From an uncultured Desulfovibrionaceae bacterium (GTDB lineage: Bacteria; Desulfobacterota; Desulfovibrionia; Desulfovibrionales; Desulfomicrobiaceae), in assembly GCA_964651415.1 (NCBI GenBank), contig CAZYZA010000001.1, forward strand, positions 40,274-104,273: 64,000 bases of DNA, given 5' to 3'. A program made the translations under genes and the position numbers. How positions within the stretch are numbered: position 1 is the stretch's first letter; each line of letters begins with the position of its first letter. This document shows, in pieces, positions 1 through 52,556 of the stretch. The notes under the pieces were generated by a model. It did no database searches. It saw nothing but the letters and a program-made list of their open reading frames with translations, and was not told the origin of the DNA.

Positions 1-2035
1 AGGCCAGAGGCAGGTGATAGGCATCCTGGCCGTGTTCACGCTGAAAAATGGCGTAGAGGCGTTCTTCCGTGGCGGACATGGGATGGAAAAACCGTGGCGC
101 GCCCTTGTCCAGTTCAAAGGCAAATCCACCGGCGCGCAGGGCGTGCACGCTGTGTTTGACCGCGTCCTCAATGTGGCGGATGTCGTCCTCGGTGTGTTCG
201 GTGCACAGGCCGCAGGTTCGACGCTCCCAGGTGTACACCCCCTGTTCCATGAGCAGCAGGAAGAAAAGCGGCAGCTCAATGGGCTGGGCAAAGCTGCTGT
301 ATGGTCCGTAGCTTTCAAAGATGAACTGCGGACCGAAATGCATCATGCGCAGCGGCACGCAATTGTCCTGGAACCACAGATTGAGTCGATCGGCCAGAGC
401 GTCCGCCAGGCGGCTGACCCGATCCTGCAGGCCAGGTCCCTGATCCAGGAGATATCCGGTGGCCGCGACCACGCCTTCCATGCTCAGAGGATGGCGACAG
501 AAGGTTCCGCCGAAAACAATGGTTTTGGCCTCGGCCGGATTGGAGTCATGGCCGAGAAACCCTCCATCGATATAGTCCAGATATTCCCTGCTGCCGGTGA
601 CGATGCCCACGGGCAGGCCGCCGCCCGCGACCTTGCCGTAAAGCGCCATGTCGGCAGTGACGCCGAAATGCTGCTGCGCCCCGCCCGGTGCGGTCCTGAA
701 CCCGTTGACCATCTCGTCGAAGATCAGACAGATGCCCAGCTCCCTGGTGATTCGGCGCAGACGGCGCAAAAAGGTCTGGGGCTGGAGCCCCGGCTTGCGG
801 CTCTGCACCGGCTCCACGAGCACGGCGGCCACGTCGCGTCCGCGCTGGCGGAGCATTTCCAGGGCTGACTCCGCGTTGTAATCAAGCACCAGGACATCTT
901 TGACCATGCCCGGGGGAGTACCGGGCGAGTAGGTGCCGGTGACCCCGTTTTCCGATGCGGCCAGCACGCCGTCAAAGGTGCCGTGATAGGCCCCGTTGAA
1001 CAGGGCGACCAGTGGCCGACCGGTTTTGGCCCTGGCCAGACGCAGGGCGAACATGACCGCTTCCGATCCGGTGTTGCAGAACGAAACCCGCTCCATGCCC
1101 GTCAACCGGCTGATGCGTCGGGCCGCTTCAGCCGTCAGGTCGCACTGGGGACCGAGGCCAAAGCCCCGATCCAGCCGTTTGCGCAGCGCCTCCACCACAT
1201 AGGGGGGATTATGCCCGAGAAAATGCACGCCCATGCCCAGGGCGATGTCGATGTACTCGTTGCCGTCCACATCACGGAAGCGGCCGCCATAGGTGGTGTC
1301 GGCCACCAGGGGATAGGCGGTGTCGGCCAGTTCCGGTCGGTAGGACAGGCTGGATTTCCAATCGGCCAGGGTGTCCGTGTCGCGGCCGAGTTTGCGGGAG
1401 CCAGGGGTGCGGGCCGTATGGCGCGCGACCAGACTACTGACAAAGGCCTGCTGCTCTGAGTCAAGGGGTGTTGGCTCAAAGACAAATCCCCGCAGGTTTC
1501 GTTCCAACCGAACGGGCTCGGTTTCAGGGGCGGCGGTGGACGGCAAAACAGAATGCGACGCGGCCGGAGTCGCTCCCATGGCCCGCAGTTGTGCGGCGAA
1601 AAGATCCTGCATGGTCCGCAGTTGCGTCTCGAAAAGCGCGGCCAGGTCCGGGTGTGGTCCTTGTTTTTTGCTCCGCGTTTCAGGCCGGGACGGTTGCGGG
1701 GCCTGGATGGCCACGGTGGTCTGCTCTGCCTCGGCCGTTTCAGGGCGGGAGGGAAAAGGCTGGGCGTGTTTGGGTCGTTCGGCCAGGACGTGCCGGGCCA
1801 GATCCGACATGGACGGCATGGTCGTCAGGAACCAGCGGGCCTCCAGACTGACCTCGAAACGGCGTTCAATTTCCTGGGCCAGGCGAATGATCATCAGGGA
1901 ATCGAGGCCCAATTCCAGGATATTGACATCCGGATCCAGTTCGTCAGGTTTAAGTCCGAGCGTGGTCTGGGCCAGGCCGATGATGGTCTGCAGGATGTCG
2001 TGCATATCGAGATGTCCGGATGAGGTTGGAATCAT
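1..2035 (-). CDS. Hybrid PKS/NRPS protein, N-terminal part: carrier protein (ACP) - class III PLP aminotransferase - start of a condensation domain; 3' end lies beyond the left window edge
   Basis: Not in the ORF track because there is no stop in the window. My own reverse-strand translation from the ATG at 2035 gives MIPTSSGHLDMHDILQTIIGLAQTTLGLKPDELDPDVNILELGLDSLMIIRLAQEIERRF (carrier, LGLDSL Ser). It continues ...DGNEYIDIALGMGVHFLGHNPPYVVEAL...SFCNTGSEAVMFALRLARAKTGR...LIFDEMVNGFR...DMALYGKVAGGGLPVG (PLP-Lys codon at 632-634). At the edge it reads ...HPMSATEERLYAIFQREHGQDAYHLPLA, a C1-like condensation motif. The frame is open over all ~678 codons that I read. Confidence 0.8.
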   Translation of the reverse strand, partial: MIPTSSGHLDMHDILQTIIGLAQTTLGLKPDELDPDVNILELGLDSLMIIRLAQEIERRFEVSLEARWFLTTMPSMSDLARHVLAERPKHAQPFPSRPETAEAEQTTVAIQAPQPSRPETRSKKQGPHPDLAALFETQLRTMQDLFAAQLRAMGATPAASHSVLPSTAAPETEPVRLERNLRGFVFEPTPLDSEQQAFVSSLVARHTARTPGSRKLGRDTDTLADWKSSLSYRPELADTAYPLVADTTYGGRFRDVDGNEYIDIALGMGVHFLGHNPPYVVEALRKRLDRGFGLGPQCDLTAEAARRISRLTGMERVSFCNTGSEAVMFALRLARAKTGRPLVALFNGAYHGTFDGVLAASENGVTGTYSPGTPPGMVKDVLVLDYNAESALEMLRQRGRDVAAVLVEPVQSRKPGLQPQTFLRRLRRITRELGICLIFDEMVNGFRTAPGGAQQHFGVTADMALYGKVAGGGLPVGIVTGSREYLDYIDGGFLGHDSNPAEAKTIVFGGTFCRHPLSMEGVVAATGYLLDQGPGLQDRVSRLADALADRLNLWFQDNCVPLRMMHFGPQFIFESYGPYSSFAQPIELPLFFLLLMEQGVYTWERRTCGLCTEHTEDDIRHIEDAVKHSVHALRAGGFAFELDKGAPRFFHPMSATEERLYAIFQREHGQDAYHLPLA

Positions 2036-2098
2036 GGGAAAAGAGCGGTGTACGCATGGCTCCTGCCCGGCGTGCGCCGGGCAGGAGCGGTTGAGAGA

Positions 2099-5000
2099 CT
2101 AGAAAACGCCGCCGATGGAGAAGCCAAGGATCGTGGTTTCCTGCATGGATGGACCGTCATAGCGCCCGTATTCGAGGTTCAGGCGCAGCCCTGAGGAGGT
2201 GAGCACGTCCAGGGCCGCATTGAGACGCAGCAGATTATCGTCCAGATCAGCTCCCGTGGTCGAGAATCCGAAACCGGGATCGCTGCGCAGAGCGGCGTTG
2301 ACATCCGGTTGGTCGAGCCAGTTCCGCCACCAGGCCGCGCTGAGCCGGGGGGTGACCTCGACGCTTTTCAACATAAAGGTCCGGCTCAGTTCCAGACCGG
2401 CCGTGGTCGCGAGGTAATCGGCGCGCAGGCTGTCCACGGCCAGGGCGCTGTCACCGCCGTCTTCCTTGTATCCGGCGCTGGCCAGGTTCAGGTACGCACC
2501 TTCGACGAAAGGTCTGACCGTCAGATATTCAAAGGCCAGGGCGTGGGACAGGGCGGTGGAGAGGCGGACGTCCTGCATGGTGTAATCGGCGTGATTTTTT
2601 TCGTTCAGAAACGGTACGTTGCGGTCGGACTCCACATCGTGCAATCCCAGGGACAGCTCCGCGCTCCATTCTGTCGGCCCCGATGTCCAGCGCACAAAGG
2701 GACCAAAACGCAAAATCGTGTCTTCCACGTCTCCGCCTTTGGCGTAGTCCAGTTCTTCGGTGCCGTATCCCAGGAAGAGACCGGCCTGCAGGCGGGAATT
2801 CAGATTTCGTCCCAGACCGACGATGGCTCCGCCGCCCCTGGTGTCGTAGTCGTCCCAGGCCTGGCCGGAGGCGTCCTGGGAGCCGAAGTGGCCATGAAAT
2901 GCTCCAAAAGCGAACCACTGATTTTCCGTGGCGGCCGTACTTTTGGTCGCGATGGTTTTGTGCAGGATCTGGGTCTGACGGAGCTGGGCCATGGCCAGAC
3001 CGTTTGGTGCATGGGGCTGAAGTTGGGCCGTATCCTTTTTGACCGTGGAGGACATGTCCAGGTTTTCGATCAGATCGTGACCGCCGGAGGACAGTGCGCC
3101 GCCGACAGCGGCGGCTGCCATGCGGTCCAGGGCCCTGCCCAGACTGTCGTTGGCGGCATTGGCGGTGTAATAGTCCCAGTCCCGACTGCTGGTCAGGATC
3201 ACGTCGCCGCCTGCCTCGGACAGGGCGAAGGTGACGGGTCTGTAGGGGTTTTCGACCAGCGGACTACCGGCATACGTGGCCACGTCGGTCGCGAGCACGT
3301 AGCCGGCGTCACCCAGGACGCCCGTCAATCCCGTTTCAATTCTGGTTGCGGCGTCCAGCACCAGGGTGTCGGCTCCCTGAATGCCGGGCCCGGACGCAAG
3401 GTCCAGAACCAGCATCGCGCCGGTCGCCGTCAGACTGTTGTCTCCCGCTCCCAGGTCGATATTGCCGTGGACCAAGCCTCTGTCGCTGATGACGACGTTG
3501 TCGTTTCCGTCTTCGCCTTTGATGGACAACAATTCGCCGGACACGGCTCCGCCGACGATATTCAGGTTGCTCACGCCGTTTCGCATCCATGCGCCGTAGC
3601 CGCTGCCCGCGACCACGCCGTAGACGTTGGCGGTGGAGTCTTCCAGGCTGATGCCGGCGGTCAGCACTCCGGGCATGCGGGACATGTCGCTGATGTACGC
3701 CCCGGGAGTGTAGCTGACGCCGTCCCAGGGGTTTACGGCCTGGGCCATGACTCTGCCGTACAGATCAAGCACCGCACCGTTTTCCAGGACCGCGCCGTAC
3801 GCGGCGTGGGTTTGTGGGCTGACCGTGGTGAAGTCCGGGGTCATGGAATGAGCGGCGGTGTAGACACCGAGGTTGCCGCTGGCCTCGACCGTGGCCTGAG
3901 CGCCATCAAGACGCAGGGCCGATGACGAACCCAGGGAAAGCAGGGTCCCGGCGATGGTGACCTCCGAGGCTCCGGGCCTGACCTGCACGGCGCTGCCTGC
4001 GCCGCCCTGCATATAGGCCAGGGACTGACCTGCCGTGTGCAGGCTGCCACCGGCTCCCACGGAAATGGCCGATGCACCCTCGCCGTAGGCCGCGACTTCG
4101 CCGTCCAAGTCGAGGGTCGCGCCGGAGCCGACGTGAAAAACGGATGTCCGGGTACCGTAGGCTTCGGCCCGAGCGCCGGCGGCCACGCGTCCGCTCACCC
4201 CGTTGGTCAGGGTCACGGCGGCAGTGTCGGCGGTATCCGTGTAGTAGGTCAGGGTGGGATCGATGGTTTTGCGCATGGGATTGCCACCCAGGGCCAGGAA
4301 AGTCAGATCCATGTACGAGGTCGTCCGGCCGCTTGCATCCACCACGAAGCTGGTGCTCTGCACGGCGTCGGTGATGATCGGATCAAAGGTGAAATAGCCG
4401 CCGTTGGCGCCGGCGGACACCCCGGCCAAACCAGTCAGAACGCCGTCGGCACGGTACAGACGTTCCAGGCCGTGGCAGAGATCCATGAGCAGGGCTTCGG
4501 ATGGAGTGCTTGTCTGCACGCCGTGGGTATCGATGGTGCTCAGACTCAGGGCGTTGACGACCAGACCAAGGCCCAACTGCTGGTACCAGGCCGAAAAGGA
4601 GCTGTACCCGGCGATGCTGCCGCCGTGGCCGATGATGGTCAGAGGTATCTCCGCGTTGGTGAAATCCAGGGTGAAGACATTGTAGCCATACAGGAGCGGC
4701 ATGCCGGCCATGCTGATCAGGGTGCTGTTGGCCAGATCGGTCCGGGCCGCGAACAAGGCGTCCGAAAGGAAAGAAGTTCCGTCGGGCAGGATGTTCGTTT
4801 TCAGGATTTCCAGCCATTTGAGCTGATCTTCCAGGGTGCTGACCACCGCGCCGGAGGTCCAGGGGATGGTCGGGTCCATGTCGGTGATGGTCTGGCCGCT
4901 CTCTTTGCCGGGAATGATTCCGGTCGAATCCGGTGTCATGGCCAGATAGGTATTGGTCAGACCGGCCGGAGCAAGGACCATTTCGTCCAGGATTTCGGCA

Positions 5001-5677
5001 AAAGTTTTGGATGCTCCTGTCTCGGCCGAGTAGGCCGCTTCGCCGATGAGGGACAGGATGATGGCGTTGGTGTTGGAGTAGCTGCCTTGGAACGGGGGCG
5101 AGGGGATCTGCGGGTATCCGGCCAGTCCCAGAGCGGCCAGTTCTTCATGGGTGACCGGCGGCGTGAGCACTCCGTAATTGGCAGCGATCCATTCGTCCCA
5201 GAGGATGGAAGACGATCCGGATCTGGCCCCGCTCATGTAGTTGGGAATGCGCGAGTCCATGTTCAGGAGTTGCTCCACGGTGATACTTTCCGTACCGGCC
5301 GGAAGCTGGGCCAGACCGAGATCCAGGCTGTATTTCTGCTGCAATTCGCCAATGGTGTCGGTCAGTTTGAGATAGCCGCGGTCGATCATGAGCAGGACGA
5401 CGCTGCCGGTGAACATTTTGGATTGGCTGCCAATGCGGAACTGTCCGTTCGGGTCGGCGCCATGGCCGGACAGGGTGATGGCCCCGCTGCCCAGGGTCAG
5501 GCCGACATTGCTGACGATGCCGGTCTGGTCATGGTGATTCCGATGGATGATGTTTGTCAGGTCGGCGGCCAGACCGTTTGCCATGGGATTGGCCGAATAG
5601 TCGGCGGCTGTCGCGGGCAGTGCGGCCGTCCAGACCATGGTGAGGCAGAGCAGGATATGTAGGAAATGTTTCAGCAC
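2099..5677 (-). CDS. Secreted S12 / class-C-beta-lactamase-fold serine hydrolase fused to a Gly-rich passenger and a C-terminal autotransporter (type Va) beta-barrel
   Basis: ORF-track ORF 2099..5776 (1225 aa). The likely true start is the GTG at 5677, preceded by GGAGG (alternative ATG at 5695). This gives the signal peptide LKHFLHILLCLTMVWTAALPATA/ADY. Hydrolase motifs are SxxK (FRIGSQSK, Ser codon ~5426-5428), YxN (GSYSNTN) and HGG (IIGHGGSIAGY). The C-terminal ~280 aa has alternating hydrophobic strands and ends ...ILGFSIGGVF (terminal aromatic), typical of an autotransporter beta-domain. Confidence 0.8.
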   Translation of the reverse strand: MLKHFLHILLCLTMVWTAALPATAADYSANPMANGLAADLTNIIHRNHHDQTGIVSNVGLTLGSGAITLSGHGADPNGQFRIGSQSKMFTGSVVLLMIDRGYLKLTDTIGELQQKYSLDLGLAQLPAGTESITVEQLLNMDSRIPNYMSGARSGSSSILWDEWIAANYGVLTPPVTHEELAALGLAGYPQIPSPPFQGSYSNTNAIILSLIGEAAYSAETGASKTFAEILDEMVLAPAGLTNTYLAMTPDSTGIIPGKESGQTITDMDPTIPWTSGAVVSTLEDQLKWLEILKTNILPDGTSFLSDALFAARTDLANSTLISMAGMPLLYGYNVFTLDFTNAEIPLTIIGHGGSIAGYSSFSAWYQQLGLGLVVNALSLSTIDTHGVQTSTPSEALLMDLCHGLERLYRADGVLTGLAGVSAGANGGYFTFDPIITDAVQSTSFVVDASGRTTSYMDLTFLALGGNPMRKTIDPTLTYYTDTADTAAVTLTNGVSGRVAAGARAEAYGTRTSVFHVGSGATLDLDGEVAAYGEGASAISVGAGGSLHTAGQSLAYMQGGAGSAVQVRPGASEVTIAGTLLSLGSSSALRLDGAQATVEASGNLGVYTAAHSMTPDFTTVSPQTHAAYGAVLENGAVLDLYGRVMAQAVNPWDGVSYTPGAYISDMSRMPGVLTAGISLEDSTANVYGVVAGSGYGAWMRNGVSNLNIVGGAVSGELLSIKGEDGNDNVVISDRGLVHGNIDLGAGDNSLTATGAMLVLDLASGPGIQGADTLVLDAATRIETGLTGVLGDAGYVLATDVATYAGSPLVENPYRPVTFALSEAGGDVILTSSRDWDYYTANAANDSLGRALDRMAAAAVGGALSSGGHDLIENLDMSSTVKKDTAQLQPHAPNGLAMAQLRQTQILHKTIATKSTAATENQWFAFGAFHGHFGSQDASGQAWDDYDTRGGGAIVGLGRNLNSRLQAGLFLGYGTEELDYAKGGDVEDTILRFGPFVRWTSGPTEWSAELSLGLHDVESDRNVPFLNEKNHADYTMQDVRLSTALSHALAFEYLTVRPFVEGAYLNLASAGYKEDGGDSALAVDSLRADYLATTAGLELSRTFMLKSVEVTPRLSAAWWRNWLDQPDVNAALRSDPGFGFSTTGADLDDNLLRLNAALDVLTSSGLRLNLEYGRYDGPSMQETTILGFSIGGVF

Positions 5678-5772
5678 GGTTACCTCCATGAGCATCCGCA
5701 GATCGTCGGGGATTATGCGGCCAGAACGCGAAAAGGCCGCCGGAAAAAGGCCGGCGGCCTCGAAGCGGCAAA

Positions 5773-6444
5773 TCATGTTGCCGGTACTTCAGCCGGTTCG
5801 TCTTTGGTGAACCATCCTTTGACGGTTTTCTTGCTCCCTTCGTAGCCGGATTTGATCTCATCGCCGATTTTTTTCATGTCCAGGGGGTTGAAGCCGGCAC
5901 CGGTGGCGAAGTGGCTGGCGAAGGCGCGGCCCACGGCGTAGGTTGCGGCCGCGTTGGTCAGGGGCAGAGTGGCCAGGGACAACCCCGGACCGACGATAGG
6001 CACATAGCGCATCAGATGCGAAAGTTTGGGGGTGATCAGGGCGGGGAGGATGCCACCGACCAGGGCGGCGGTGATCTGCTTGCCCCATTCGGCCTTGAAG
6101 GGGATGCCGTTGGCTTTGGCCAACTGGTAGATCATTTCGACCTGCAGAGCGGCCAGGGCCGTGGTGTTGAAAAAGGGTACCGGAACCAGCGCGATGGCCA
6201 GCGAGCCGTGAACCCGGTTACGGATAATGATGTCAGTTTCCCTGGTACAAGGTTTGACGGGAGCCGTTTCTTCGGTCTGCAGGTTCAGATCGGTTGCAGG
6301 TGTTTCTTCCACGATTCTCTCTCCGGGTAAAAGGGTTGTGAGGCTCATGGGCGACGCCTCGCCGGGTGAGCATAACGTCTCTGTCGTTTTCCGGCCGCGA
6401 CCGGCTGGTTTACGGTTTTTTGGTCTCTGGTTCGAGTTTGCCAC
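5773..6444 (-). CDS. DUF697-like small membrane protein (YcjF-related fold), function unknown
   Basis: 223-aa ORF with a GTG start at 6444. The first ATG is at 6348 (MSLTTLL...), so the basic N-terminus may not be translated. The core RNRVHGSLAIALVPVPFFNTTALAALQVEMIYQLAKANGIPF...LPLTNAAATYAVGRAF resembles the DUF697 pattern as I remember it. Family assignment needs an HMM search. Confidence 0.5.
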   Translation of the reverse strand: MANSNQRPKNRKPAGRGRKTTETLCSPGEASPMSLTTLLPGERIVEETPATDLNLQTEETAPVKPCTRETDIIIRNRVHGSLAIALVPVPFFNTTALAALQVEMIYQLAKANGIPFKAEWGKQITAALVGGILPALITPKLSHLMRYVPIVGPGLSLATLPLTNAAATYAVGRAFASHFATGAGFNPLDMKKIGDEIKSGYEGSKKTVKGWFTKDEPAEVPAT

Positions 6445-6534
6445 TGTGTACTCCAGGCCGCCGTGTGCGTCCAGCGGTTCCGAAAAATGATGACATGACG
6501 ACAGCCGCCCGCATAACCCTGCACACAGGCATGA

Positions 6535-7227
6535 TCACGACTGCCCGAGCACCTCCCAGAGCAGGGTCTCCAGGGCATCGGGCCGCTCCAGCAGATGAAA
6601 ATGCGAACCGGTCAGCACCTGTACGGTGCAGTCGGCCGTGGTGTGTCGACGCCATACTTCCATGTCCTCCCTGTCCACGATGTCCGCATGACCGCAGATG
6701 GCCGTGACCGGGGCGTCGATGGCCGGCAGGGTCGGCGGGGAGTAGTTCAGGACAGCGCCGAGGTCGGCCCGCAGAACCGGGGCGAAGAGCGTCATGAGTT
6801 CCGGGCTGGCCGCGATCTGATCCGGCATGCCGCCAAAATAGGTCGAGCTTTCGCGCCACAATTCCCGGTCCCCGAGTGAGGGGAATTGCGGTGGAATATG
6901 GTGCCGACCCGGTGTGCAGGTGCTCGATATGACGACATGGGCCGGGGTTATGGACATCTCATCCAGATGTGCGGCCAGGGCGTGGGCCAGGATGCCGCCC
7001 ATGCTGTGTCCGAACAGGGCGAAGGGGTCGCACTTGACCGAGGCGCGAAGTATCCGCCCCAGGTCGTCGACCATATCGTCGATGTTCCGGAGCAGCGCTT
7101 CGCCCATGCGCCGACCATGGCCGGGCAGATCAAGGGGAACGAGTTCGTGTGACCGTCCGAGGCCGGAGAAAAGGGGGACGTAGGCGGCGGGGCTGCCGCC
7201 GGCATGGCCAAGAAGAAACAGCTTCAT
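6535..7227 (-). CDS. Type II (editing) thioesterase, alpha/beta hydrolase
   Basis: MKLFLLGHAGGSPAAYVPLFSGL..., nucleophile elbow GHSMGG, and C-terminal ...VLTGSHFHLLERP. The ATG at 7227 overlaps the upstream PKS stop (ATGA, 7224-7227). The longer ORF-track start at 7428 lies inside the PKS gene. Confidence 0.85.
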   Translation of the reverse strand: MKLFLLGHAGGSPAAYVPLFSGLGRSHELVPLDLPGHGRRMGEALLRNIDDMVDDLGRILRASVKCDPFALFGHSMGGILAHALAAHLDEMSITPAHVVISSTCTPGRHHIPPQFPSLGDRELWRESSTYFGGMPDQIAASPELMTLFAPVLRADLGAVLNYSPPTLPAIDAPVTAICGHADIVDREDMEVWRRHTTADCTVQVLTGSHFHLLERPDALETLLWEVLGQS

Positions 7228-10121
7228 TGCCCTTCCTCCCCGTCCCTGCCGCTGAGCAGGGCCTGCTGCATGAGGCAGACTTCCCGAAACATTTCGACCT
7301 GGCGAATGGCCAAGTGCACTGCCGAGGCCCTGGCGGTTTCCGGCGGCGTCAACGCTGACAGCGGAACTGAGGCCACACAAGCGTCCCGGGGCATGTCCGT
7401 TTCCGGGGTATGAGGGGCAAGCGCCCACTGCGGCACGAGTCGCTCCCGTTCAAAGGAGTACGGTGGCATGATTTCCGGGCAGGGTCGGCCTGTGTCCTGC
7501 CAGTCCCAGCGCGGTGTTATGCCCAGAGTGAACAACCGGGCCAGGGACTGGGCAAAGGGCTTCATGCCGGCGTCGGGGTTTTCGGAAAAGAGCCAGGTAC
7601 CGTTGTCGCGGCATTGTCGACCGTAGGAGGTCAGGGTCGGGCTGGCCCCGAGTTCGAGAAAAACTGTTTCGTTCGTTGCAGCCATGGCCTGGGCAAAGCG
7701 GACCGGGCGTCTGGTCTGGGCGCGGAAATAGGTCGGCCAATGTGTTCTCGGATCAAGATACTCTCCGCTCAGCCCGGAAAGGATGGGGATTGTCGGTGCG
7801 GAAAAGGTCATGGTGCGCAGAAAATCCTCGAATTCGTCCAGAATCGGCTCGATCAGAGGGCAGTGGAAGGCGTGGGACACGGGAAGAGGGCGGCTTTCCA
7901 GGCCACGTTCACGCAGGAGGTTGACCGCGTTTTCGACCTCGTCTCGTCTTCCGGCGATGGTCACCGTGTCCGGTCCATTGATTGCGGCAATGCCGACATC
8001 GGAACCGGAGCCAAGCACTTGGGCCACGGCGGTTTCACTGCCCAGAATGGCGGCCATGGCCCCCTGCGCGGTGATGGACGCGGCCAGTTCGCCGCGTTTC
8101 AAAGTAATGGACAGCCCGGTTTCCAGATCAAAGACACCGGCCGCATGGGCGGCCGCGTATTCACCGATGCTGTGTCCGAAAACGGCGGACGGCCGGATCC
8201 CGCATTCCCGCCACAAGGCCGTCAGGGCGACCTGATGGGCGTAGATGGCCGGTTGGGTGCAACGCGTGTCGTGCAGGCGGTCGTTGTCCGGGGCGAACAT
8301 GGCTTCGCGCAGGGAATATCCGAGCCGTGCAGCCGCCACTTCGTCGCAGCGGTCGATGACGTGACGAAAGACCGGAAAGGTGTCGTACAGCAGCCGTCCC
8401 ATGCCCCCGTGCTGAGACCCCTGTCCGCTGAACAGGAACATGACCGGCAAAGCGTCTTTGACCACGCCACGGGCCACTCCCCGCTTGGTCTTGCCCTGGG
8501 CGAAAGCCTGCAAGGCGTCCAGGGCTTCGGTTGTCGTGGACGCCGTCAGGGCCAGGCGTTCGGGTTCCGCCGGACGCAGCGCTGCCGCCATGCACAGATG
8601 GTCCAGAGCAGTCCCCTCTTTCAAGACATGTGCGCAGGCGGCGGCCAGCCTGGTCAGACCGGGCAGGCTGCGGGCGCTCAAGGGCAGGACGTGGCAGGAA
8701 GGCGCCGGCTCTGCCGGTTCTTCAGACGCCAGGGCAGGTGGTTCGGCCACCAGCAGATGGACCAGGGTTCCGGAAATGGCGAAACTGTCAATGCCTGCGA
8801 CCCGTCGGGCATAATTCCGGGGCCAGGGCTGAGTGGCCGACACGACCTGCACCGGTAAACTGTCCCAATCCAGAAGGGGATTCGGGGGCTGGCAGTGCAG
8901 ACTGGCCGGAATGACGCCGTCGCGCACGGCCAGGACGGTTTTGATCAGCCCGGCCATGCCCGAGGCCGCCTCCAGGTGGGCCACATTGCTTTTGACCGCT
9001 CCGATGAGCAGCTTGTCCCCGCGCTGGCCATAGACTTGGCTCAGGCTTTCGACCTCGATGGGATCGCCCAGTGGGGTGCCCGTGCCGTGAGTTTCCACAA
9101 ATCCGACCTCTTCGGGCCGGACTGCGGCATTGGCCAGGGCTCTGGTCATGGTCAGCCGCTGACCCTTGGCGCTGGGCGCGGTGAAACCGGCGCTTTTTCC
9201 GTCCGAGCCGATGGCTCCGCCCAGGATAACGGCATGGATGCGTCGTTTGTGACGCTGGGCGTCGCTCAGCCGTTCCAGCACGACCATTCCGCCGCCTTCG
9301 CCGCGACCGAAGCCGTCGGCTCCGGCCCCGAAGGCCTTGCAGCGTCCATCCGGAGCCAGGGAATGCATGGCCCCGAGCCAGTGGCTGGGCGTGGGGCCGA
9401 GCAGCAGATTGGCGGATCCGGCCAGGGCCAGGGAGCATTCACCCAGACGCAGGCTGTTGACCGCGTTCATGACCGCGACCAGACCCGTGGCGCAGGCCGA
9501 CTCCACGGCCACACACGGGCCGCTGAAGTCGTAGAAATGAGATATGCGACCGGGCAGGGTGCTGTGCATGTTGCCGGTCATGGTGTAGGGATCGTCGGCC
9601 GAATCACGGGCCGTGCCCAGAATGTCGAACAGGTAGTCCGTGCCGGTCTTGCCGGCGAAAACGCCGCTGTCCGTTCCGGGCAGGGCCGTCGGGTCAAGGC
9701 CTGCGTCCAGAATGGCCTGCCAGGACAATTCCAGGAGCAAACGATGTTGGGGATCGATCATGGCCGCCTCGGCCGGAGTCTGGCCGAACAGAGTCCGGTC
9801 AAAGGCAAAGATGTCGCGCTGGAGCAGGGCGGCGTGGGTCAGGCCGGGCACGCGCGGTTGCTGCTCCTGCCTGTGCCGGGAGCGCCACAGCGCGGCCCGC
9901 TCTTCCGGGATCGGCCGTACCGCGTCATAGCCCCGGGCCAGAAGCCGGGCAAAGGCGTCCGGGGTTTCGGCGTCACCGTGGTCGTCGCCGGGAAAAAGGC
10001 AGGACATGCCGATGATCGCCACTGCTTCGCCCATGGTCCGGGTCTGGCGCTGCAGGTCGCGGATGGTGTCCCGCGCCCCGCGCAGGGCGGTTTTGTATTG
10101 CTGCTCCAGGGTCTGGTCCAT
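7224..10121 (-). CDS. Type I PKS, KS-AT didomain protein without a carrier domain
   Basis: KS motifs are VESACATG, ETHGTGTPLGD and NVAHLE. AT motifs are FSGQGSQHGGMG, GHSIGEYAAAH and SHAFHCPL (HAFH = malonyl-type). The ~130-aa tail has no DSL-type carrier motif. The ATG at 10121 overlaps the upstream stop (TGATG, 10119-10123). The ORF-track start at 10250 lies inside the upstream gene. Confidence 0.9.
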   Translation of the reverse strand: MDQTLEQQYKTALRGARDTIRDLQRQTRTMGEAVAIIGMSCLFPGDDHGDAETPDAFARLLARGYDAVRPIPEERAALWRSRHRQEQQPRVPGLTHAALLQRDIFAFDRTLFGQTPAEAAMIDPQHRLLLELSWQAILDAGLDPTALPGTDSGVFAGKTGTDYLFDILGTARDSADDPYTMTGNMHSTLPGRISHFYDFSGPCVAVESACATGLVAVMNAVNSLRLGECSLALAGSANLLLGPTPSHWLGAMHSLAPDGRCKAFGAGADGFGRGEGGGMVVLERLSDAQRHKRRIHAVILGGAIGSDGKSAGFTAPSAKGQRLTMTRALANAAVRPEEVGFVETHGTGTPLGDPIEVESLSQVYGQRGDKLLIGAVKSNVAHLEAASGMAGLIKTVLAVRDGVIPASLHCQPPNPLLDWDSLPVQVVSATQPWPRNYARRVAGIDSFAISGTLVHLLVAEPPALASEEPAEPAPSCHVLPLSARSLPGLTRLAAACAHVLKEGTALDHLCMAAALRPAEPERLALTASTTTEALDALQAFAQGKTKRGVARGVVKDALPVMFLFSGQGSQHGGMGRLLYDTFPVFRHVIDRCDEVAAARLGYSLREAMFAPDNDRLHDTRCTQPAIYAHQVALTALWRECGIRPSAVFGHSIGEYAAAHAAGVFDLETGLSITLKRGELAASITAQGAMAAILGSETAVAQVLGSGSDVGIAAINGPDTVTIAGRRDEVENAVNLLRERGLESRPLPVSHAFHCPLIEPILDEFEDFLRTMTFSAPTIPILSGLSGEYLDPRTHWPTYFRAQTRRPVRFAQAMAATNETVFLELGASPTLTSYGRQCRDNGTWLFSENPDAGMKPFAQSLARLFTLGITPRWDWQDTGRPCPEIMPPYSFERERLVPQWALAPHTPETDMPRDACVASVPLSALTPPETARASAVHLAIRQVEMFREVCLMQQALLSGRDGEEGQ

Positions 10122-16699: not shown

Positions 16700-16723
16700 G
16701 CAGCGTCCTTGAAGTCGAGATGG

Positions 16724-17752
16724 TCAGGAGAGAATGCGAACATCCAGATAACCGGGGAAACCGGCGTGACCGTCACCCTGGTATTCCAGCAGGGACCAGG
16801 AACCATCCCGGGCCACTTCCTCGAAGCCCGCGAATTTGTAGGTCACGTACATCATCCGGTTGCGGTCCGTTTCCACGAATTCGGCCCGCAGCTTCTTGCC
16901 GGATCGGACCGCCTCGGAGATGACATGGTTGAGCATGACCGAACCGACCCCGCGCGACATGACCCGGCAGGACATGAGCAGCAGTTTCAACGTCCAGCAG
17001 TCCTCGCCTTTTTCCACCAGGCACAGGCCGATTTTGCCGTAGGGGCCGAATTTGTCCTCCAGGGCGCTCATGAGCAGGAGGTGGTCCGGCGAGGAGCGTA
17101 GCCTGTCCAGCTCGTCGTGGCCGAAGGTCAGTCCTGTGGCGTTGAGTTGATGGGTGCGTTCCGTCAGGTCCACGGCCCGTTGCAGATCGCCGTCGGCCAC
17201 GGGGGCGATGGAGAAGCGCATGTCGAGGCTGGCCAGAAAGGCTTCGGCCGGGCCGGAAAAGTTTTCCTCGGCCTTGGCCCGGCTCTGGTCCGTCAGATAG
17301 AGCTGGCGGCGCATGGCCGAATCCTCGGTCACAAAGCGCGGGATGAAGCGCGGCAATTCCGGGATGGTCGGCATGTTGGCCGCGTCCAGGCACAGCACCT
17401 CGGGCAGGGCCAACCCGACCTCTTCCCGCTCAAAGGGCTGATCATCGACAAAGGCAAAGGTGTTCAGGCCGATGTTCAATTTTTGGGCGATAGTCTGCAG
17501 GGACTGGCTTTTGGGACCGAAATGGATCTGCGGATACAGAAAATAGTCGTTCAGGCCCAGGCGGGTCAGGTTAGCCATGGCGTGGTCATGCTCGTTGCGG
17601 CTGGCGATGGATTGCAGGATGCCGCGCCGGTCCAGGCTTTGGATCACTTCCAGCGCTGCGGGTCGCAGATCCCGACCGCCTCCTTCCAGCAGCACGCCGT
17701 CCCAGAGCGTGTCGTCCAGGTCCCAGACCAGGCACTTGACGGTTTTACTCAT
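16724..17752 (-). CDS. FkbH-like HAD-superfamily phosphatase/acyltransferase (glyceryl-ACP forming)
   Basis: MSKTVKCLVWDLDDTLWDG (HAD DxDxT motif) ...ILQSIASRNEHD...FAFVDDQPFEREEV, plus a C-terminal acyltransferase-like half. Size (342 aa) and motif pattern match FkbH/ZmaN-type proteins as I recall them. The ATG overlaps the upstream stop by 8 nt. Confidence 0.75.
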   Translation of the reverse strand: MSKTVKCLVWDLDDTLWDGVLLEGGGRDLRPAALEVIQSLDRRGILQSIASRNEHDHAMANLTRLGLNDYFLYPQIHFGPKSQSLQTIAQKLNIGLNTFAFVDDQPFEREEVGLALPEVLCLDAANMPTIPELPRFIPRFVTEDSAMRRQLYLTDQSRAKAEENFSGPAEAFLASLDMRFSIAPVADGDLQRAVDLTERTHQLNATGLTFGHDELDRLRSSPDHLLLMSALEDKFGPYGKIGLCLVEKGEDCWTLKLLLMSCRVMSRGVGSVMLNHVISEAVRSGKKLRAEFVETDRNRMMYVTYKFAGFEEVARDGSWSLLEYQGDGHAGFPGYLDVRILS

Positions 17753-18887
17753 GGCGTTTTCTCCGGGGAGGGCGGTGGCGCATAAAGGCGTGATTGGAAA
17801 TCATGAGCTGCTGCATCTGGGAGCTGCCTTCGATGATTTCGCAGATCTTGGCGTCGCGGTAATAGCGCATGAGCGGGTAGTCCGGGGAACAACCATTGCC
17901 GCCATGAACCTGCAGGGCGTCGGACGCGGCGCGCAGGGCGGCCCTGGAGCAGAAATACTTGGCCGTGGTGATGAGCATGATCGAGTCCGGGGACATGGCG
18001 TCCCGCTCCCGCCCGGCATGCAGCACCAGGGCCCTGGCCGCTTCCAGGTCCGTGGCCATGTTGGCGATCATTTCCTGGATGAGCTGGTGCTTGCGCAGGG
18101 CCTGGCCGAACTGGGTCCGCTCCTTGGCGTAGATGACGCTCGTTTCCAGGCAGGCTTCCAGAATGCCCACGCAGCCGCAGCCCACGGTGAAGCGCCCATG
18201 ATCCAGGGCATGGGAGGCAACAAAGGTGAAGCCGCCGCCGGTGGGGCCCAGGATGGACTCGGCCGGCAGCGCGCAGTCCGTGAAATCCAGGCGGGCGATG
18301 CCGGCCGCCCGGAATCCGAGCAGATCCTTCATGGGCGTGATGCGCAAACCGGGCGTGCCGGCCGGAACCAGCAGGGCGACCACGCCTTCGTCCTCCAGCC
18401 GGGCCATGATCAGAAAAAGACCGGCATGGACCGAGCCGGAGATCCATTTCTTGGCTCCGTTCAGGATCAGCCTCTCCCCGTCGCGCCGGACCCGGCACTG
18501 GATGCCGGCCGCGTCACTGCCATGGTCGGGTTCGGTCAGACCGAAGGCGGCCCGGACCCGGCCGGCGGCCAAAAGAGGCAGCCATCGGTGCTGTTGCTCG
18601 GGCGTGCCCCAGCGCAGCACGGCCTGGGAAACCATGTTGTGCACGGTCAAAAGACTCAGCAGGGACACGCTGCCCCTGGCCAGTTCGGCGCAGATCCGGC
18701 ACAGACCGGAACTGTCCAGGCCCTGGCCGCCCCAGGTCCGGGGCAGACCCGCTCCAAACCACTTCTCGGCGCATTCTTCGATGATGTCGTCCGGCAGGGA
18801 CTGCGCTTCCTCCCAGGCGTTGGAATAGGGGTAGACCCGGTCGTTAATCCACGCGCGCATGGCGCGGCCTGCGACTTCAGCGTCCAT
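17745..18887 (-). CDS. Acyl-CoA/acyl-ACP dehydrogenase (FkbI/ZmaE/ClbF-like)
   Basis: ACAD-family sequence (...GLTEPDHGSDAAGIQC..., ...YFCSRAALRAASDALQVHGGNGCSPDYPLMRYYRDAKICEIIEGSSQMQ). The probable start is the ATG at 18887, preceded by GAAGGAGAAGGG. The ORF-track start is at 18914. Confidence 0.85.
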   Translation of the reverse strand: MDAEVAGRAMRAWINDRVYPYSNAWEEAQSLPDDIIEECAEKWFGAGLPRTWGGQGLDSSGLCRICAELARGSVSLLSLLTVHNMVSQAVLRWGTPEQQHRWLPLLAAGRVRAAFGLTEPDHGSDAAGIQCRVRRDGERLILNGAKKWISGSVHAGLFLIMARLEDEGVVALLVPAGTPGLRITPMKDLLGFRAAGIARLDFTDCALPAESILGPTGGGFTFVASHALDHGRFTVGCGCVGILEACLETSVIYAKERTQFGQALRKHQLIQEMIANMATDLEAARALVLHAGRERDAMSPDSIMLITTAKYFCSRAALRAASDALQVHGGNGCSPDYPLMRYYRDAKICEIIEGSSQMQQLMISNHAFMRHRPPRRKRHE

Positions 18888-19122
18888 GCCCTTCTCCTTC
18901 GACCAGGGAGACAATGGCGTCGATGGATTGAAAATTGCTCAGTTTCAGATTTTCACGGCTGATGGTCAGTTGAAACTGTTTTTCCACGAACATCACCAGT
19001 TGCATGGCAAAAAGCGAATTGACGTATCCCAGTTCGAACATGTTTTCATCATCGGCCAGTTCGTCGTCCTTGACGTATTTCAGCACAAAATCCCGGATAG
19101 TCCCCCGCACGTCGTTGGTCAT
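18877..19122 (-). CDS. Stand-alone acyl carrier protein (FkbJ/ZmaD/ClbE-like)
   Basis: 81 aa, acidic, with the carrier-type helix II motif ELGYVNSLFAMQLVMFVE. It lies between the two dehydrogenases, as in known extender-unit cassettes. Confidence 0.75.
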   Translation of the reverse strand: MTNDVRGTIRDFVLKYVKDDELADDENMFELGYVNSLFAMQLVMFVEKQFQLTISRENLKLSNFQSIDAIVSLVEGEGHGR

Positions 19123-19161
19123 GTATTCGTCCTTAGGTCTTTGGTGGATAAAAGTACGTTG

Positions 19162-20010
19162 TCAGGCGTATTCGTAAAAACCCTTGCCACTCTTGCGGCC
19201 CAGCAAACCTGCGTCCACCATCTTGCGCAGCAGGGGACACGGTCTGAATTTCGGATCGTTGTAGCTTGCGTACAGCCCTTCGAGGGACAGCAGGATCGTG
19301 TCCAGGCCGATCAGGTCGCCGGTTTCCAGCGGTCCCATGGGATGGCCGAAACAGGATTTGAAAATCCGGTCCACGTCTTCGGGGCGGGCCACATTGTCCT
19401 GGACGGTCCAGATGGCCTCGTTGACCGTGAGCATGAGCACGCGGTTGGACACGAATCCCGGCAGGTCGTTGACCACCACGGCCCGTTTTTTCATCTGTTT
19501 CAGAAAAGTCTTGGCCCGTGCGATGGTTTCGTCGCTGGTGTGATGCCCCCGAATGACCTCGACCACGGGTTTGAGCGGGACCGGGTTCATGAAATGCATG
19601 CCCACGATTTTGTCCGCGCGCTGTGTCCAGGACCCGATGCGGGTGATGGAAATGACCGAGGTGTTGGCCGCGATGCATGTCTCCGGCCGACAGATGCGGT
19701 CCAGGTCGCGGTACAGGGGTTCTTTCAGGTCAACCAGCTCCGTGATGTTTTCGACGACAAAATCCGCTTCGGCCAGTACTTCGGGTCGGGTGGCGAATCG
19801 GATGCGCGGCAGACAGGCGTCCACGTCCACGGCGTCCCGACCGAACAGACCGTGCATGCGCATGGCCTGGACGATGTCGTGTCGGGCCTGGTCCAGAATG
19901 TCCGTGTTCACGTCCACGAGCAGGACGTCCATGCCGTGCATGGCCAGGGTCTGGCTCACGCCGCGTCCCATGACTCCGGCGCCCACGACGCCTATGCATT
20001 GAAAATCCAT
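19162..20010 (-). CDS. 3-hydroxyacyl-CoA dehydrogenase family protein (FkbK/ZmaG/ClbD-like)
   Basis: MDFQCIGVVGAGVMGRGVSQTL (Rossmann GxGxxG) and the HBD-family core ...MHFMNPVPLKPVVEVI...GFVSNRVL.... ATG at 20010 is preceded by GGAGGA. The ORF-track start is at 20076. Confidence 0.85.
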   Translation of the reverse strand: MDFQCIGVVGAGVMGRGVSQTLAMHGMDVLLVDVNTDILDQARHDIVQAMRMHGLFGRDAVDVDACLPRIRFATRPEVLAEADFVVENITELVDLKEPLYRDLDRICRPETCIAANTSVISITRIGSWTQRADKIVGMHFMNPVPLKPVVEVIRGHHTSDETIARAKTFLKQMKKRAVVVNDLPGFVSNRVLMLTVNEAIWTVQDNVARPEDVDRIFKSCFGHPMGPLETGDLIGLDTILLSLEGLYASYNDPKFRPCPLLRKMVDAGLLGRKSGKGFYEYA

Positions 20011-20080
20011 GAATCCTCCATAACAATGAGACCTGCCTTCGCCAGGCATATTTCCATAACGACCTGAAATATCCATGAGT

Positions 20081-23000: not shown

Positions 23001-23203
23001 AGGGGGGCGGCCACGACCTGGGAAATGACCTCGGGGCTGGCGCCGGGATAGATCGCGGTGACCGAGACGGCCGGCGGAAGCAGATCCGGATATTGGGCCA
23101 CCGGCAGGCGTGTCAGCGCCAGGGTGCCCAAGATGACGATGACCAGGGAGATGACGATGGCCAGGACCGGTCGACGCAGAAAGAAAATGTCCTGCATGAT
23201 CAA
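20081..23203 (-). CDS. RND (HAE1/AcrB-type) efflux permease
   Basis: 1040 aa with 12-TM RND architecture. The N-terminus FFLRRPVLAIVISLVIVILG and multiple conserved AcrB-like blocks are present. The start overlaps the MFP stop (ATGA). Confidence 0.93.
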   Translation of the reverse strand: MIMQDIFFLRRPVLAIVISLVIVILGTLALTRLPVAQYPDLLPPAVSVTAIYPGASPEVISQVVAAPLEQAVNGAQDLLYLQSTCSANGVMSMTATFAQGTDPEAASSRVSNLVQGTLASLPDEVRRLGVSVTAGSGAFLMIITLSSPDGRYDSLYLNNYAALNIIDHLKRIPGVASAASLISEEYAMRIWFDPAKLAAFALTPQDIARAVQEQNAQYAAGTVGLQPAPDDLKMTWLVSTQGRMATVEEFGDIIVRVDQNKGIMRLRDVARIELGAADYGVRSKLNGQPVAGVSISLAPGANALQTADLIAARMIELSRDFPPGMEHAIPYNVTTFVRISIEEVVHTLFEAMVLVALVIFLFLQNVRATLIPCIAVPVSIIGTMIGMYLLGFSINTLTLFGMVLAIGIVVDDAIVVLENVERIMHEKGLSARQATSLAMREVTGPVIATVLVMCAVFVPVSFMGGMTGEMFRQFGITIALSVTLSGIVALTLSPVMCARLLRPHGGGTWFSRLFDRCFAWVTNIYLAGVRLLLRFDILAIVGMCLLGWAVWDLLHRVPEGLAPDEDQGYVIAVAMLPEGAAMPRTDKVLDTLSATMLRDPAVDSVLTIAGTDLLGGTGTVGSAGAAFIMLKPWDQRPDPAQSSQAVAGRVFGVDVTDGMLAAFNPPPIVGLSTVGGLEGFLQNNAGASVEDMAAQAAKLSQAAAGRPELDGVGSSLSLGTPKVYVQLDVEKAKLMGVAVGDVYQALSSALAGSYLNDFTLHGRAFRVYLQADSVFRAGPEDLSSIFVRSQAGEMIPLANLISTTTTSGAFALTRFNGVPAARMSGQAAPGYSNLQAMAALEDLVRTELPAGYSLAWSGSSFQEKAEGGTNYMALLLGLGLMFLILAAQYDSWTLPTAVVLAVPFALFGALATIFVLGFANDIYVQVAMVTLIGLAAKNAILIVEFAAVELAAGRTPAEAALEAARLRFRPIIMTSLAFILGCVPLVISSGAGSGCRHVLGSSIIGGMVAATVISPVFVPWFFKVVMSLRRIRPATGQPGA

Positions 23204-30912: not shown

Positions 30913-31248
30913 ATGTCAGAATTTGAAAGGTGCTTATTGGAGACGGAAACGCTTATCAAAAATCCGATGATCGCCAAGGAACAGGTCCGGGCCCACGCCA
31001 GGTCTTTGCCGTGGATGCGGGCCAACAGCCAAGAACTGCAGGCCGCAGGCTGGAGCGTGGATGAGTTGTACCGTATCGGAACGTTGTGTTTTCCCTATTC
31101 CGAATGGGGGCCGGGGTGGTTTAGCCTGTGGAACAACGAAAAATGCGAGCCCCGGATCTCCGACCGGGGCAATATTGAGTTTGTGCTGCACGAAGCCGGT
31201 GGCGACGTGGTGCAGACCTGCTGGCTGAAAAAGAGTTTTCTGGCCTGA
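30913..31248 (+). CDS. Hypothetical protein
   Basis: ATG at 30913 is preceded by GTGAGGA (the ORF-track ORF starts at 30865). I recognise no motif. Confidence 0.4.
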   Translation: MSEFERCLLETETLIKNPMIAKEQVRAHARSLPWMRANSQELQAAGWSVDELYRIGTLCFPYSEWGPGWFSLWNNEKCEPRISDRGNIEFVLHEAGGDVVQTCWLKKSFLA

Positions 31249-52307: not shown

Positions 52308-52334
52308 AACTCCTCCCGGGTTTGGCTGATGAAA

Positions 52335-52350
52335 TGCACATGCAGTGCCA
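52335..52350 (-). promoter_or_regulatory. Probable sigma54 promoter of nifV
   Basis: The reverse strand reads TGGCACtgcatGTGCA, with correct GG-N10-GC spacing and a -12 element GTGCA instead of TTGCA. It lies ~28 nt upstream of the nifV ATG (52307). Confidence 0.55.
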
Positions 52351-52540: not shown

Positions 52541-52556
52541 TGGCACGACCATTGCC
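52541..52556 (+). promoter_or_regulatory. Sigma54 (-24/-12) promoter of the nifH operon
   Basis: TGGCACgaccaTTGCc is an exact match to TGGCAC-N5-TTGC. It lies ~60 nt upstream of the nifH ATG (52615) and is preceded by an AT-rich tract (52499-52540). Confidence 0.78.

Follow-up and report, generated by a model that had tools for sequence, protein, structure and literature searches.

Gene and domain architecture

The 64,000 nt window analysed here (the whole stretch from position 40,274 to 104,273, forward strand, of contig CAZYZA010000001.1, assembly GCA_964651415.1, from an uncultured Desulfovibrionaceae bacterium) contains a polyketide synthase-nonribosomal peptide synthetase (PKS-NRPS) gene cluster arranged as a single-orientation array on the minus strand, and between its PKS and NRPS genes lies a gene whose product we call the S12-autotransporter. 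Judged from its sequence and a structure model, this protein is predicted to be a classical (type Va) autotransporter with an S12 serine hydrolase in its passenger (Table 1). From the N-terminus it appears to comprise a signal peptide, judged by eye to have n, h and c regions and cleavage at ATA/AD (...ALPATA/AD); a hydrolase domain matching PF00144 (Beta-lactamase; aa 71-374, E 9e-23, 81.4 bits versus a cut-off of 27); a Gly/Ala/Thr-rich stalk; a helical region, of which one helix (aa 892-910) precedes the barrel; and a translocator matching PF03797 (Autotransporter; aa 927-1171, E 6e-38) that ends in ...SIGGVF, with a terminal aromatic residue (F1192) that is at least 90% conserved in homologues. 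The catalytic motifs are better conserved still, S84, K87, Y200, S201, N202, H351, G352 and G353 being invariant in 20 full-length homologues, with Q85 and S86 conserved at 90% or more across the same set.

The full-length AlphaFold2 model (mean predicted local distance difference test score, pLDDT, 89.4; predicted template modelling score, pTM, 0.74) divides into an alpha/beta domain (aa 30-410), a beta-rich stalk (413-832), helices (836-910) and a beta-barrel (921-1191). Foldseek and profile searches give EstA, AaaA and NalP as the closest structures for the barrel (TM-score 0.82 for the NalP translocator); the strand count from DSSP is ambiguous (12-13 segments), and the barrel assignment rests on superposition with NalP and EstA. 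A preliminary description of this locus, made from the letters alone, had proposed the signal peptide, the S12 triad (SQSK, YSN, HGG), the Gly/Ala/Thr-rich passenger and the autotransporter domain ending in GGVF, and each of these parts is borne out.

A minus-strand open reading frame (ORF) runs from 2099 to 5776 (1225 codons), and the public gene call (P0001, 1225 aa) begins at its ATG (5776), overlapping the stop codon of a DUF697 gene. We place the start at GTG 5677 because of the spacing of a GGAGG motif, because the N-termini of homologues mostly align there in a multiple alignment, and because the 33 extra residues of the longer call are unconserved, in a region that includes a GC hairpin. 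The deposited protein thus probably carries 33 spurious N-terminal residues, which would mask the signal peptide. The preliminary description had already ended the gene at this GTG, although its nucleophile, Ser117, was numbered on the longer ORF and corresponds to Ser84 here.

Two GC-rich hairpins flank the gene on the minus strand. One (9 bp, 5731-5759, GGCCGCCGG-N7-CCGGCGGCC and then TTTT) occupies the gap from the DUF697 stop to the S12-autotransporter start, and the other (2062-2085, CCTGCCCGG-N6-CCGGGCAGG) comes immediately past the S12-autotransporter stop codon; attenuation or a part in mRNA stability inside the operon could be their role. A promoter and terminator scan of 1900-7600 gave no signal exceeding shuffled background.

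Placement of the hydrolase domain

A family profile built from 20 homologues and searched against the Protein Data Bank (PDB) matched the alkaline D-peptidase of Bacillus cereus (ADP, 4y7p) with E 1.4e-24, a Streptomyces D-stereospecific amidohydrolase (DAH, 3wwx) with 1.7e-20, the D-stereospecific hydrolase dHy1 (9s7k) with 5.6e-18 and the R61 DD-peptidase with 2.5e-15. Ulm16, a cyclase of the penicillin-binding protein (PBP) type, reached 1e-3 and ClbP 2e-3, the latter without a significant stretch, and SurE was not among the best 60 of 78 profile matches. In a single-sequence search ADP was again best (1e-9), followed by R61 (~1e-5), with ClbP at 0.05 over the SxxK region only. Foldseek searches with the AlphaFold2 model were led by 3wwx, R61, 4y7p, 9s7k and D-amino-acid amidase (DAA; together ranks 3-13, target TM-score 0.73-0.80, with ~0.74-0.76 for the four leading profile matches), behind which class C beta-lactamases rank; ClbP was not in the top 50. 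Whether searched by sequence or by structure, esterases, IS11 (7spn) among them, rank far behind the D-peptidases.

The third motif points the same way. The GHGGSIAGY of the S12 domain aligns with GHGGSIPGF of ADP, and a His-x-Gly at this position is typical of R61, D-aminopeptidase and alkaline D-peptidase, whereas class C beta-lactamases have KTG. On sequence and predicted fold, the domain is accordingly placed in the D-stereospecific peptidase/DD-peptidase clade (ADP, R61, DAH, DAA); of the 'full S12/class-C triad' first described, the S12 motifs stand but the class C label does not. An AmpH identity was considered and rejected, the NCBIfam match (38.7 bits) being far below its cut-off of 266, and the class C match has an E-value of only 0.01.

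It had also been proposed that the enzyme is a relative of ClbP, XcnG and ZmaM in which an autotransporter replaces the transmembrane (TM) anchor. Peptidases of that type are D-specific S12 enzymes, specific for N-acyl-D-Asn; the third residue of their Y-x-N motif (position 188), Asn in the wider S12 family, is a Ser or Thr that contacts the side chain of the D-Asn, and they have a strictly conserved N331 oriented by E92, and ClbP activity requires a three-helix TM domain (TMD), notably W466, that forms part of the substrate site (PMC9889268). Here the residue equivalent to 188 is Asn202, invariant in homologues, and the C-terminal half of the protein consists of stalk and barrel, in which Pfam and AlphaFold2 reveal no equivalent of the three-helix TMD or W466. 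There is indeed no TM anchor, and the analogy with ClbP, XcnG and ZmaM is not supported.

Linkage to biosynthetic gene clusters

A scan of one genome per species identified eight loci with a two-domain (PF00144 and PF03797) protein, which were compared by tblastn using proteins of the window. The gene order DUF697, S12-autotransporter, then an NRPS beginning with an acyl carrier protein (ACP) and an aminotransferase (AMT) domain recurs in six further loci (L002-L005, L008, L009), at 29-50% identity; these include a Desulfovibrio and a Desulfovibrionaceae metagenome-assembled genome, Candidatus Adiutrix and unclassified Deltaproteobacteria. Wherever the flank of a locus reaches far enough, a resistance-nodulation-division (RND) pump and a cassette of FkbH-like, acyl-CoA dehydrogenase (ACAD) and 3-hydroxyacyl-CoA dehydrogenase (HADH) genes are adjacent. 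Two other loci, from Accumulibacter (L007) and a member of the Rhodospirillaceae (L006), share accessory genes. The former has two tandem S12-autotransporter paralogues (7980-12164 and ~13877-17589) directly after genes for the outer membrane factor (OMF), membrane fusion protein (MFP) and RND components of a pump, and its matching 5304-aa NRPS (P0029) is on a contig equal in size to the S12-autotransporter contig; the latter has a type II thioesterase (TE), Band_7 and ABC substrate-binding genes, and an 801-aa protein of the major facilitator superfamily (MFS). All 9 full-length NRPS orthologues lie on contigs equal in size to contigs with S12-autotransporter matches. The nearest named homologues are from Desulfoplanes formicivorans (59% identity for the S12-autotransporter, 63% for the NRPS).

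A HMMER search with the S12 domain against 1.84 billion representatives returned only 11 proteins at E<=1e-30, all of 1200-1300 aa. The next tier (E 1e-29 to 1e-17, ~33% identity) contains many proteins of ~1000-1300 aa, and 6 of the 7 scanned members of ~1000-1220 aa combine PF00144 with PF03797. Five contexts of such distant S12-autotransporters were recovered (Azospirillum sp. TSH100, Methylobacterium sp. EM32 and three metagenome contigs), every one of which adjoins NRPS genes, or genes with the order fatty-acyl-AMP ligase (FAAL), ACP, ketosynthase (KS), acyltransferase (AT), ACP, AMT and NRPS, along with a condensation-adenylation-thiolation (C-A-T)-TE module. Within the recovered stretches DUF697 occurs in 4 of the 5 and Band_7 in 3; in the fifth, the recovered sequence ends 47 bases upstream of the gene. 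In total, all of the roughly 15 contexts examined across Desulfobacterota, Alpha- and Betaproteobacteria are NRPS or PKS-NRPS clusters.

The S12-autotransporter together with DUF697 is a conserved accessory module of biosynthetic clusters, and the architecture extends beyond the cluster type of the window, with a biosynthetic cluster in every examined case. The gene had been taken for a true component of the cluster, one that orthologous clusters should retain, and it is; an unrelated surface esterase, offered at the outset as an alternative, was dropped as a serious option because every examined context is a biosynthetic cluster.

DUF697 lies near the S12-autotransporter in nearly all sufficiently flanked loci of both the close and the distant families, immediately upstream of it in those of the first tier, often accompanied by Band_7/SPFH (companion sites L020:28069-28659 and 30995-32056, and in L021, L022, L023 and L024), and a 58-68-aa ORF is also present in several distant clusters. 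DUF697 and Band_7 could be a membrane-protection or export helper set. The distant clusters also carry extra tailoring functions (L021:19720-20691; L023:1-506): the Azospirillum cluster has a hydroxylase of the TauD type, the Methylobacterium cluster asparagine synthase-like and methyltransferase domains. They start with a fatty-acyl-AMP ligase, and they probably make long-chain beta-amino lipopeptides, unlike the short-chain product predicted for the window.

Assembly line and predicted product

The neighbours named in the preliminary description (DUF697, ACP-AMT-C, HADH-ACP-ACAD cassette, type II TE and RND-OMF pump) are all present (Table 1). The window edge cuts the NRPS gene, and its remainder was read from two near-identical public contigs (full gene in L020) and scanned in overlapping pieces, giving a protein of 5390 aa with the order ACP-AMT-(C-A-T)x4-TE-E, where E is an epimerisation domain. 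Downstream of it on the public contigs are a phosphopantetheinyl transferase, an ABC substrate-binding protein, a second DUF697, an ABC ATPase and a Band_7 protein. The final domain carries the epimerase motifs PIQRWFF, HHLVVDGVSW, EGHGRQ and FNYLG and matches the TycA, TycB, GrsA, PvdL and bacitracin epimerases at ~1e-45 to 1e-51, versus 1e-6 for ordinary C domains. In the resulting T-TE-E end (L020:24068-26170) the epimerisation domain stands after, not before, the thioesterase; we know of no characterised assembly line with this order.

Table 1 Features of the S12-autotransporter gene and its cluster, in window coordinates
Feature	Position	Strand	Basis
S12 hydrolase-autotransporter, whole gene; 1192 aa, stop TAG 2099-2101	2099..5677	minus	ORF, both Pfam domains, AlphaFold2
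Shine-Dalgarno GGAGG, 5 nt upstream of GTG start (5675-5677)	5683..5687	minus	Read from sequence
Putative Sec-type signal peptide, aa 1-24, MLKHFLHILLCLTMVWTAALPATA/AD	5606..5677	minus	Inspection of sequence; N-terminal helix of low pLDDT at aa 1-24 (AlphaFold2)
S12 (PF00144) alpha/beta hydrolase domain, aa ~30-410	4448..5590	minus	Pfam, PDB profile matches, Foldseek, AlphaFold2
Motif I, S84-Q-S-K87, predicted nucleophile Ser and general-base Lys	5417..5428	minus	Homologue alignment
Motif II, Y200-S-N202, generic S12 Y-x-N	5072..5080	minus	Invariant in alignment
Motif III, H351-G-G353, H-x-G like that of alkaline D-peptidase	4619..4627	minus	Invariant; aligned to 4y7p
Gly/Ala/Thr-rich beta-helix-like passenger stalk, aa 413-832	3182..4441	minus	AlphaFold2: short regular strands, pLDDT mostly >90
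Helical region and pore-spanning linker helix, aa 836-910	2948..3172	minus	AlphaFold2
Autotransporter beta-barrel translocator, aa 921-1192, C-terminus GGVF	2102..2917	minus	PF03797; EstA 3kvn, AaaA 9oqa and NalP matches
Tripartite efflux pump at cluster head	RND 20081-23203, MFP 23200-24363, OMF 24360-25796	minus	Pfam; conserved in loci L003, L004, L007
FkbH-like/ACAD/ACP (18877-19122)/HADH cassette, hydroxymalonyl-ACP type	16724..20076	minus	Pfam; ACP ORF
PKS AT-ACP-KS-AT-dehydratase (DH)-ketoreductase (KR)-ACP-ACP, 2192 aa	10121-16699	minus	Pfam
KS-AT protein	7224-~10121	minus	Pfam
Type II thioesterase	6535..7227	minus	PF00975; gene call in L001/L020
DUF697 gene, directly upstream of S12-autotransporter	5773..6348 (also read as 5773-6444)	minus	Pfam; synteny
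NRPS gene 5' end (ACP-AMT-C...), cut by window edge, begins 93 nt past S12-autotransporter	1..2005	minus	Translation

The order of domains suggests that a short polyketide would be built, its beta-keto group transaminated on ACP-AMT, four amino acids added, and the chain released by the cis TE. Transamination of this kind is familiar from the mycosubtilin and iturin-type lines. It has also been described for RmyA (PMC4989320). Ralsolamycin (rmyAB) was rejected as a characterised relative, its cluster having a metallo-beta-lactamase and not an S12-autotransporter. From the hydroxymalonyl-type cassette and the ACP-aminotransferase, an alpha-hydroxy-beta-amino acid is a plausible head group for the product. 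Such a residue is the pharmacophore of aminopeptidase inhibitors of the bestatin, amastatin and microginin type.

Because the NRPS combines D-donor-type C domains with a terminal epimerase, its peptide is probably rich in D-residues as far as the C-terminus. For C2, C3 and C4 the best matches are C domains located after an E domain (TycB1, SrfA-C, PvdL, BacC, McyB; 1e-45 to 1e-69), versus ~1e-18 to 1e-24 for TycC6, an LCL (L-donor, L-acceptor) domain; TycB module 1, SrfA-C, the PvdL and bacitracin post-E C domains and McyB accept D-aminoacyl donors. C2, C3 and C4 all begin with an (L/V)(S/T)P(M/L)Q signature, which the last-module C domains of Azospirillum-type clusters share. Since the NRPS has a terminal E domain and no internal one, C2-C4 would have to be of the dual E/C type or accept D-residues directly; C4 has HHTLEPDSP, a mismatch to the dual E/C motif HH[IL]xxxxGD, and its class is assigned only as D-donor type.

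A PKS loading AT-ACP stands at the head of the assembly line, in place of the C-A(Asn)-T-E module that makes an N-acyl-D-Asn starter, and no other NRPS gene was found within 38 kb upstream or 10 kb downstream of the cluster. The absence of a prodrug-type starter module had been named in the preliminary description as a refuting result, and it applies to the N-acyl-D-Asn version of that proposal. Codes of the four A domains (DAWYLGSITK, DVWWTGNITK, DAYFTACVCK and DAWNPPEIMK) were read off an alignment with a hand-typed GrsA segment, the numbering of which checked out; none of the four is Asn-like, the Asn and Asp codes DLTK and DATK being ruled out.

The remaining genes of the window are housekeeping and nif genes, with no further NRPS among them. 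The nif region (51186-59560), ~25 kb from the cluster, contains a gene resembling homocitrate synthase and three of the nitrogenase component 1 type, and is consistent with a diazotrophic Desulfovibrionales-like host. Beside the cluster, a plus-strand gene (27473-29863) encodes a protein of ~800 aa with MFS similarity in its C-terminal half only and an unassigned N-terminal half of ~400 aa; the MFS protein of the Rhodospirillaceae cluster (L006:3763-6168) is similar.

Proposed role and alternatives

Taking both possible directions of its effect together, the S12-autotransporter seems, on balance, to be a dedicated post-export D-stereospecific hydrolase of the cluster product, a reading drawn from sequence and structure model. 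The RND-MFP-OMF pump would export the released, D-rich beta-amino (probably alpha-hydroxy-beta-amino) acyl tetrapeptide, which would meet the S12 domain atop its beta-helix stalk, above the outer membrane. Ser84, with Lys87, Tyr200 and His351, would attack a peptide bond with a D-residue on its acyl side, most simply near the C-terminus, to give an acyl-enzyme, and water would resolve this intermediate to leave the product trimmed or opened. Retention of the passenger on the cell surface is suggested because the closest barrel structures are those of EstA and AaaA, both of which stay surface-tethered. In this scheme we infer that the cluster product is the substrate, where the scissile bond lies, and that the passenger stays on the surface.

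Maturation or activation of the product by the S12-autotransporter, the role first suggested for this gene, is a tentative proposal, somewhat short of an even chance and slightly favoured over self-protective inactivation; the N-acyl-D-Asn chemistry attached to it is not supported. Several points temper the idea of a dedicated product hydrolase. The S12 family also spans esterases, acyltransferases and transpeptidases, so that peptide hydrolysis is one chemistry among several; the sequence is compatible with a cleavage that activates the product and with one that destroys it; and the passenger may be either retained or released. The predicted D-configuration is drawn from C-domain similarity, and where no E domain stands upstream, C domains of the DCL (D-donor, L-acceptor) kind might epimerise or might not. 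The A-domain codes, read against a hand-typed GrsA reference, come without substrate assignment, and the likeness to BogQ and TriF, which bears on the self-protective direction as well, is drawn from descriptions of these enzymes and not from their sequences.

That self-protective direction is rather unlikely but is the first alternative to maturation that has to be weighed. The S12-autotransporter would act as a D-stereospecific resistance peptidase (DRP), destroying mature D-peptide that returns to the producer at its surface, as BogQ does for bogorol and TriF for tridecaptin. D-stereospecific S12 peptidases are strongly tied to clusters for nonribosomal peptides with D-amino acids and cleave the products of these clusters (PMC9231227; for TriF, PMC6146376). 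Alkaline D-peptidase is the closest solved relative of the S12 domain, and the NRPS has no recognisable 'pro' module. Yet a long-stalked hydrolase beyond the outer membrane is oddly placed to shield targets in the periplasm or inner membrane; the pump delivers the product to the same compartment, where its constant destruction would be wasteful; and DUF697/Band_7 and the pump could already provide protection.

An esterase acting on a lactone or depsipeptide bond of the product, such as the TE might form with an alpha-hydroxyl, or one that frees bound cargo in the manner of EstB-type or siderophore esterases, is improbable. The S12 family includes esterases, of which IS11 is matched here, the hydroxymalonyl-type cassette could supply the hydroxyl, and the ABC substrate-binding and ABC genes of the cluster and its relatives, with TauD in one of them, hint at uptake or siderophore-like biology. 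The low rank of esterases in both kinds of search speaks against such a role, as does the finding that a TonB-dependent receptor was not seen in the stretches examined.

A little less credible again is an extracellular transpeptidase or cyclase that expels the C-terminal residue and passes the acyl group to the beta-amine of the product, forming a macrolactam, or to another acceptor. The DD-transpeptidase R61 scores near the top in the sequence and structure searches alike, the amidohydrolase 3wwx is known to catalyse aminolysis, and the predicted peptide has both a free beta-amine (from AMT) and a probable D-D C-terminus (from the D-donor C4 and the terminal E). By an equally long shot, the D-Xaa-D-Yaa C-terminus set by C4 and the post-TE epimerase might serve as a stored leaving group for an energy-independent surface transpeptidase, as in peptidoglycan precursors; if this is true, surface transpeptidase, DUF697 and Band_7 would form a new Gram-negative outer-membrane maturation module for natural products. 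Off-loading needs no helper, however, in a cluster with a cis TE in the NRPS and a type II TE besides; the PBP-type cyclases are marginal in the profile search, and they work in the cytoplasm on carrier-bound peptides, out of reach of a secreted passenger. A PBP-type off-loading cyclase in the strict sense, listed among the initial alternatives, is rejected on the signal peptide and barrel and on the cis TE.

Very little speaks for a role unrelated to the metabolite, such as that of a cell-wall DD-peptidase, beta-lactamase or general surface hydrolase travelling with the cluster: the sub-threshold AmpH match and public annotations of relatives as 'D-alanyl-D-alanine carboxypeptidase' or 'serine hydrolase' are set against a periplasmic peptidoglycan unreachable from the outer face of the outer membrane, the exclusively biosynthetic contexts, and the position of the gene between PKS and NRPS genes in an operon-like array. 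Least credible of all is the ClbP/XcnG/ZmaM analogy. In its favour are an extracytoplasmic S12 enzyme in a PKS-NRPS cluster with a hydroxymalonyl-type extender cassette, type II TE and export pump, and the D-specificity of ClbP-type peptidases, but clade placement, the Asn in Y-x-N, the missing TMD and the missing C-A(Asn)-T-E starter, that is, a similarity test and three defining features, all go against the removal of an N-acyl-D-Asn prodrug group.

Significance

Nonribosomal peptide tailoring and resistance peptidases are known from the cytoplasm, from the inner membrane or periplasm (ClbP) and as Gram-positive secretions (BogQ, TriF). A search of PubMed Central open-access and bioRxiv full texts found no paper with such an enzyme on the Gram-negative outer face and none linking an autotransporter to secondary metabolism; likewise, the S12-autotransporter is not listed in a survey of 1,523 autotransporter passenger sequences (PMC3419190) or in a survey of S12 architectures (PMC2605481). 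The chemistry (S12 D-peptidases tied to nonribosomal peptide clusters) and the route (enzyme-bearing autotransporters) are each known, and it is their combination, with the strict tie to clusters, that is absent from the searched literature; since both are familiar, current understanding is not overturned.

The S12-autotransporter with DUF697, and often Band_7, spans two diverged families of uncharacterised aminotransferase-type PKS-NRPS clusters, in hosts that include sulfate reducers, termite-gut lineages, Azospirillum, Methylobacterium and Accumulibacter. Its gene is a genome-mining handle for such clusters. Under the proposed role, what is secreted would be a precursor distinct from the final compound, which is relevant to isolation and heterologous production, and a naturally surface-displayed D-peptidase is a possible biocatalyst.

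Comparison with known systems

In chemistry and genetic setting, the S12-autotransporter resembles four Gram-positive enzymes. BogQ and TriF are S12 D-peptidases that inactivate, by cleavage, the D-containing peptides made by the clusters encoding them (PMC9231227, summarising Li et al. 2018). Lip3 and Lip7 activate lipopeptides by trimming them at D-L bonds close to the C-terminus (PMC12903863). All four are S12 D-peptidases that work outside the cytoplasm on nonribosomal (lipo)peptides with D-residues, and BogQ and TriF are encoded within the cluster whose product they cut; in the window the location within a cluster is observed, and the D-content of the product is predicted from C and E domains only. 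They differ in being secreted or membrane-associated without an autotransporter, and BogQ and TriF are likened to the present protein by description only.

ClbP, XcnG, ZmaM and PamJ have in common with it an S12 fold, D-specificity (here predicted), extracytoplasmic location and a place in PKS-NRPS clusters, acting after export. They differ in Y-x-S/T, N331/E92, the three-helix TMD and an N-acyl-D-Asn made by C-A(Asn)-T-E, and those of these traits that were tested are absent here. The PBP-type thioesterases SurE and Ulm16 share the S12/PBP fold, SxxK/YxN/HxG and a setting among NRPS-cluster genes, and recognise D-residues, but are cytoplasmic, stand-alone enzymes acting on carrier-bound peptides of NRPSs without a cis TE; the S12-autotransporter is predicted to be secreted, its NRPS has a TE, and its similarity to them is marginal (Ulm16 E 1e-3).

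As regards the secretion route, the counterparts are EstA (a GDSL esterase, 3kvn), AaaA (an M28 aminopeptidase, 9oqa) and the subtilisin-like NalP and SphB1, which share a Sec signal, an enzyme passenger and a superposable barrel. NalP and SphB1 act at the cell surface as proteases that mature other secreted molecules. The passengers of these proteins are GDSL, M28 or S8 and not S12, they act on lipids, peptides or proteins rather than on secondary metabolites, and to our knowledge none of the four belongs to a biosynthetic cluster.

For the catalytic domain itself, the comparison is with ADP, R61 and 3wwx, which share the SxxK/YxN/HxG set, including GHGGSIxG(Y/F), and are secreted, as the S12-autotransporter is predicted to be; they themselves act on D-aminoacyl bonds. 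Identity to this group is only 17-22% in Foldseek alignments, and its members are small soluble proteins of ~350-390 aa encoded outside PKS-NRPS clusters, whereas in the S12-autotransporter the domain is fused to a predicted beta-helix stalk and outer-membrane barrel.

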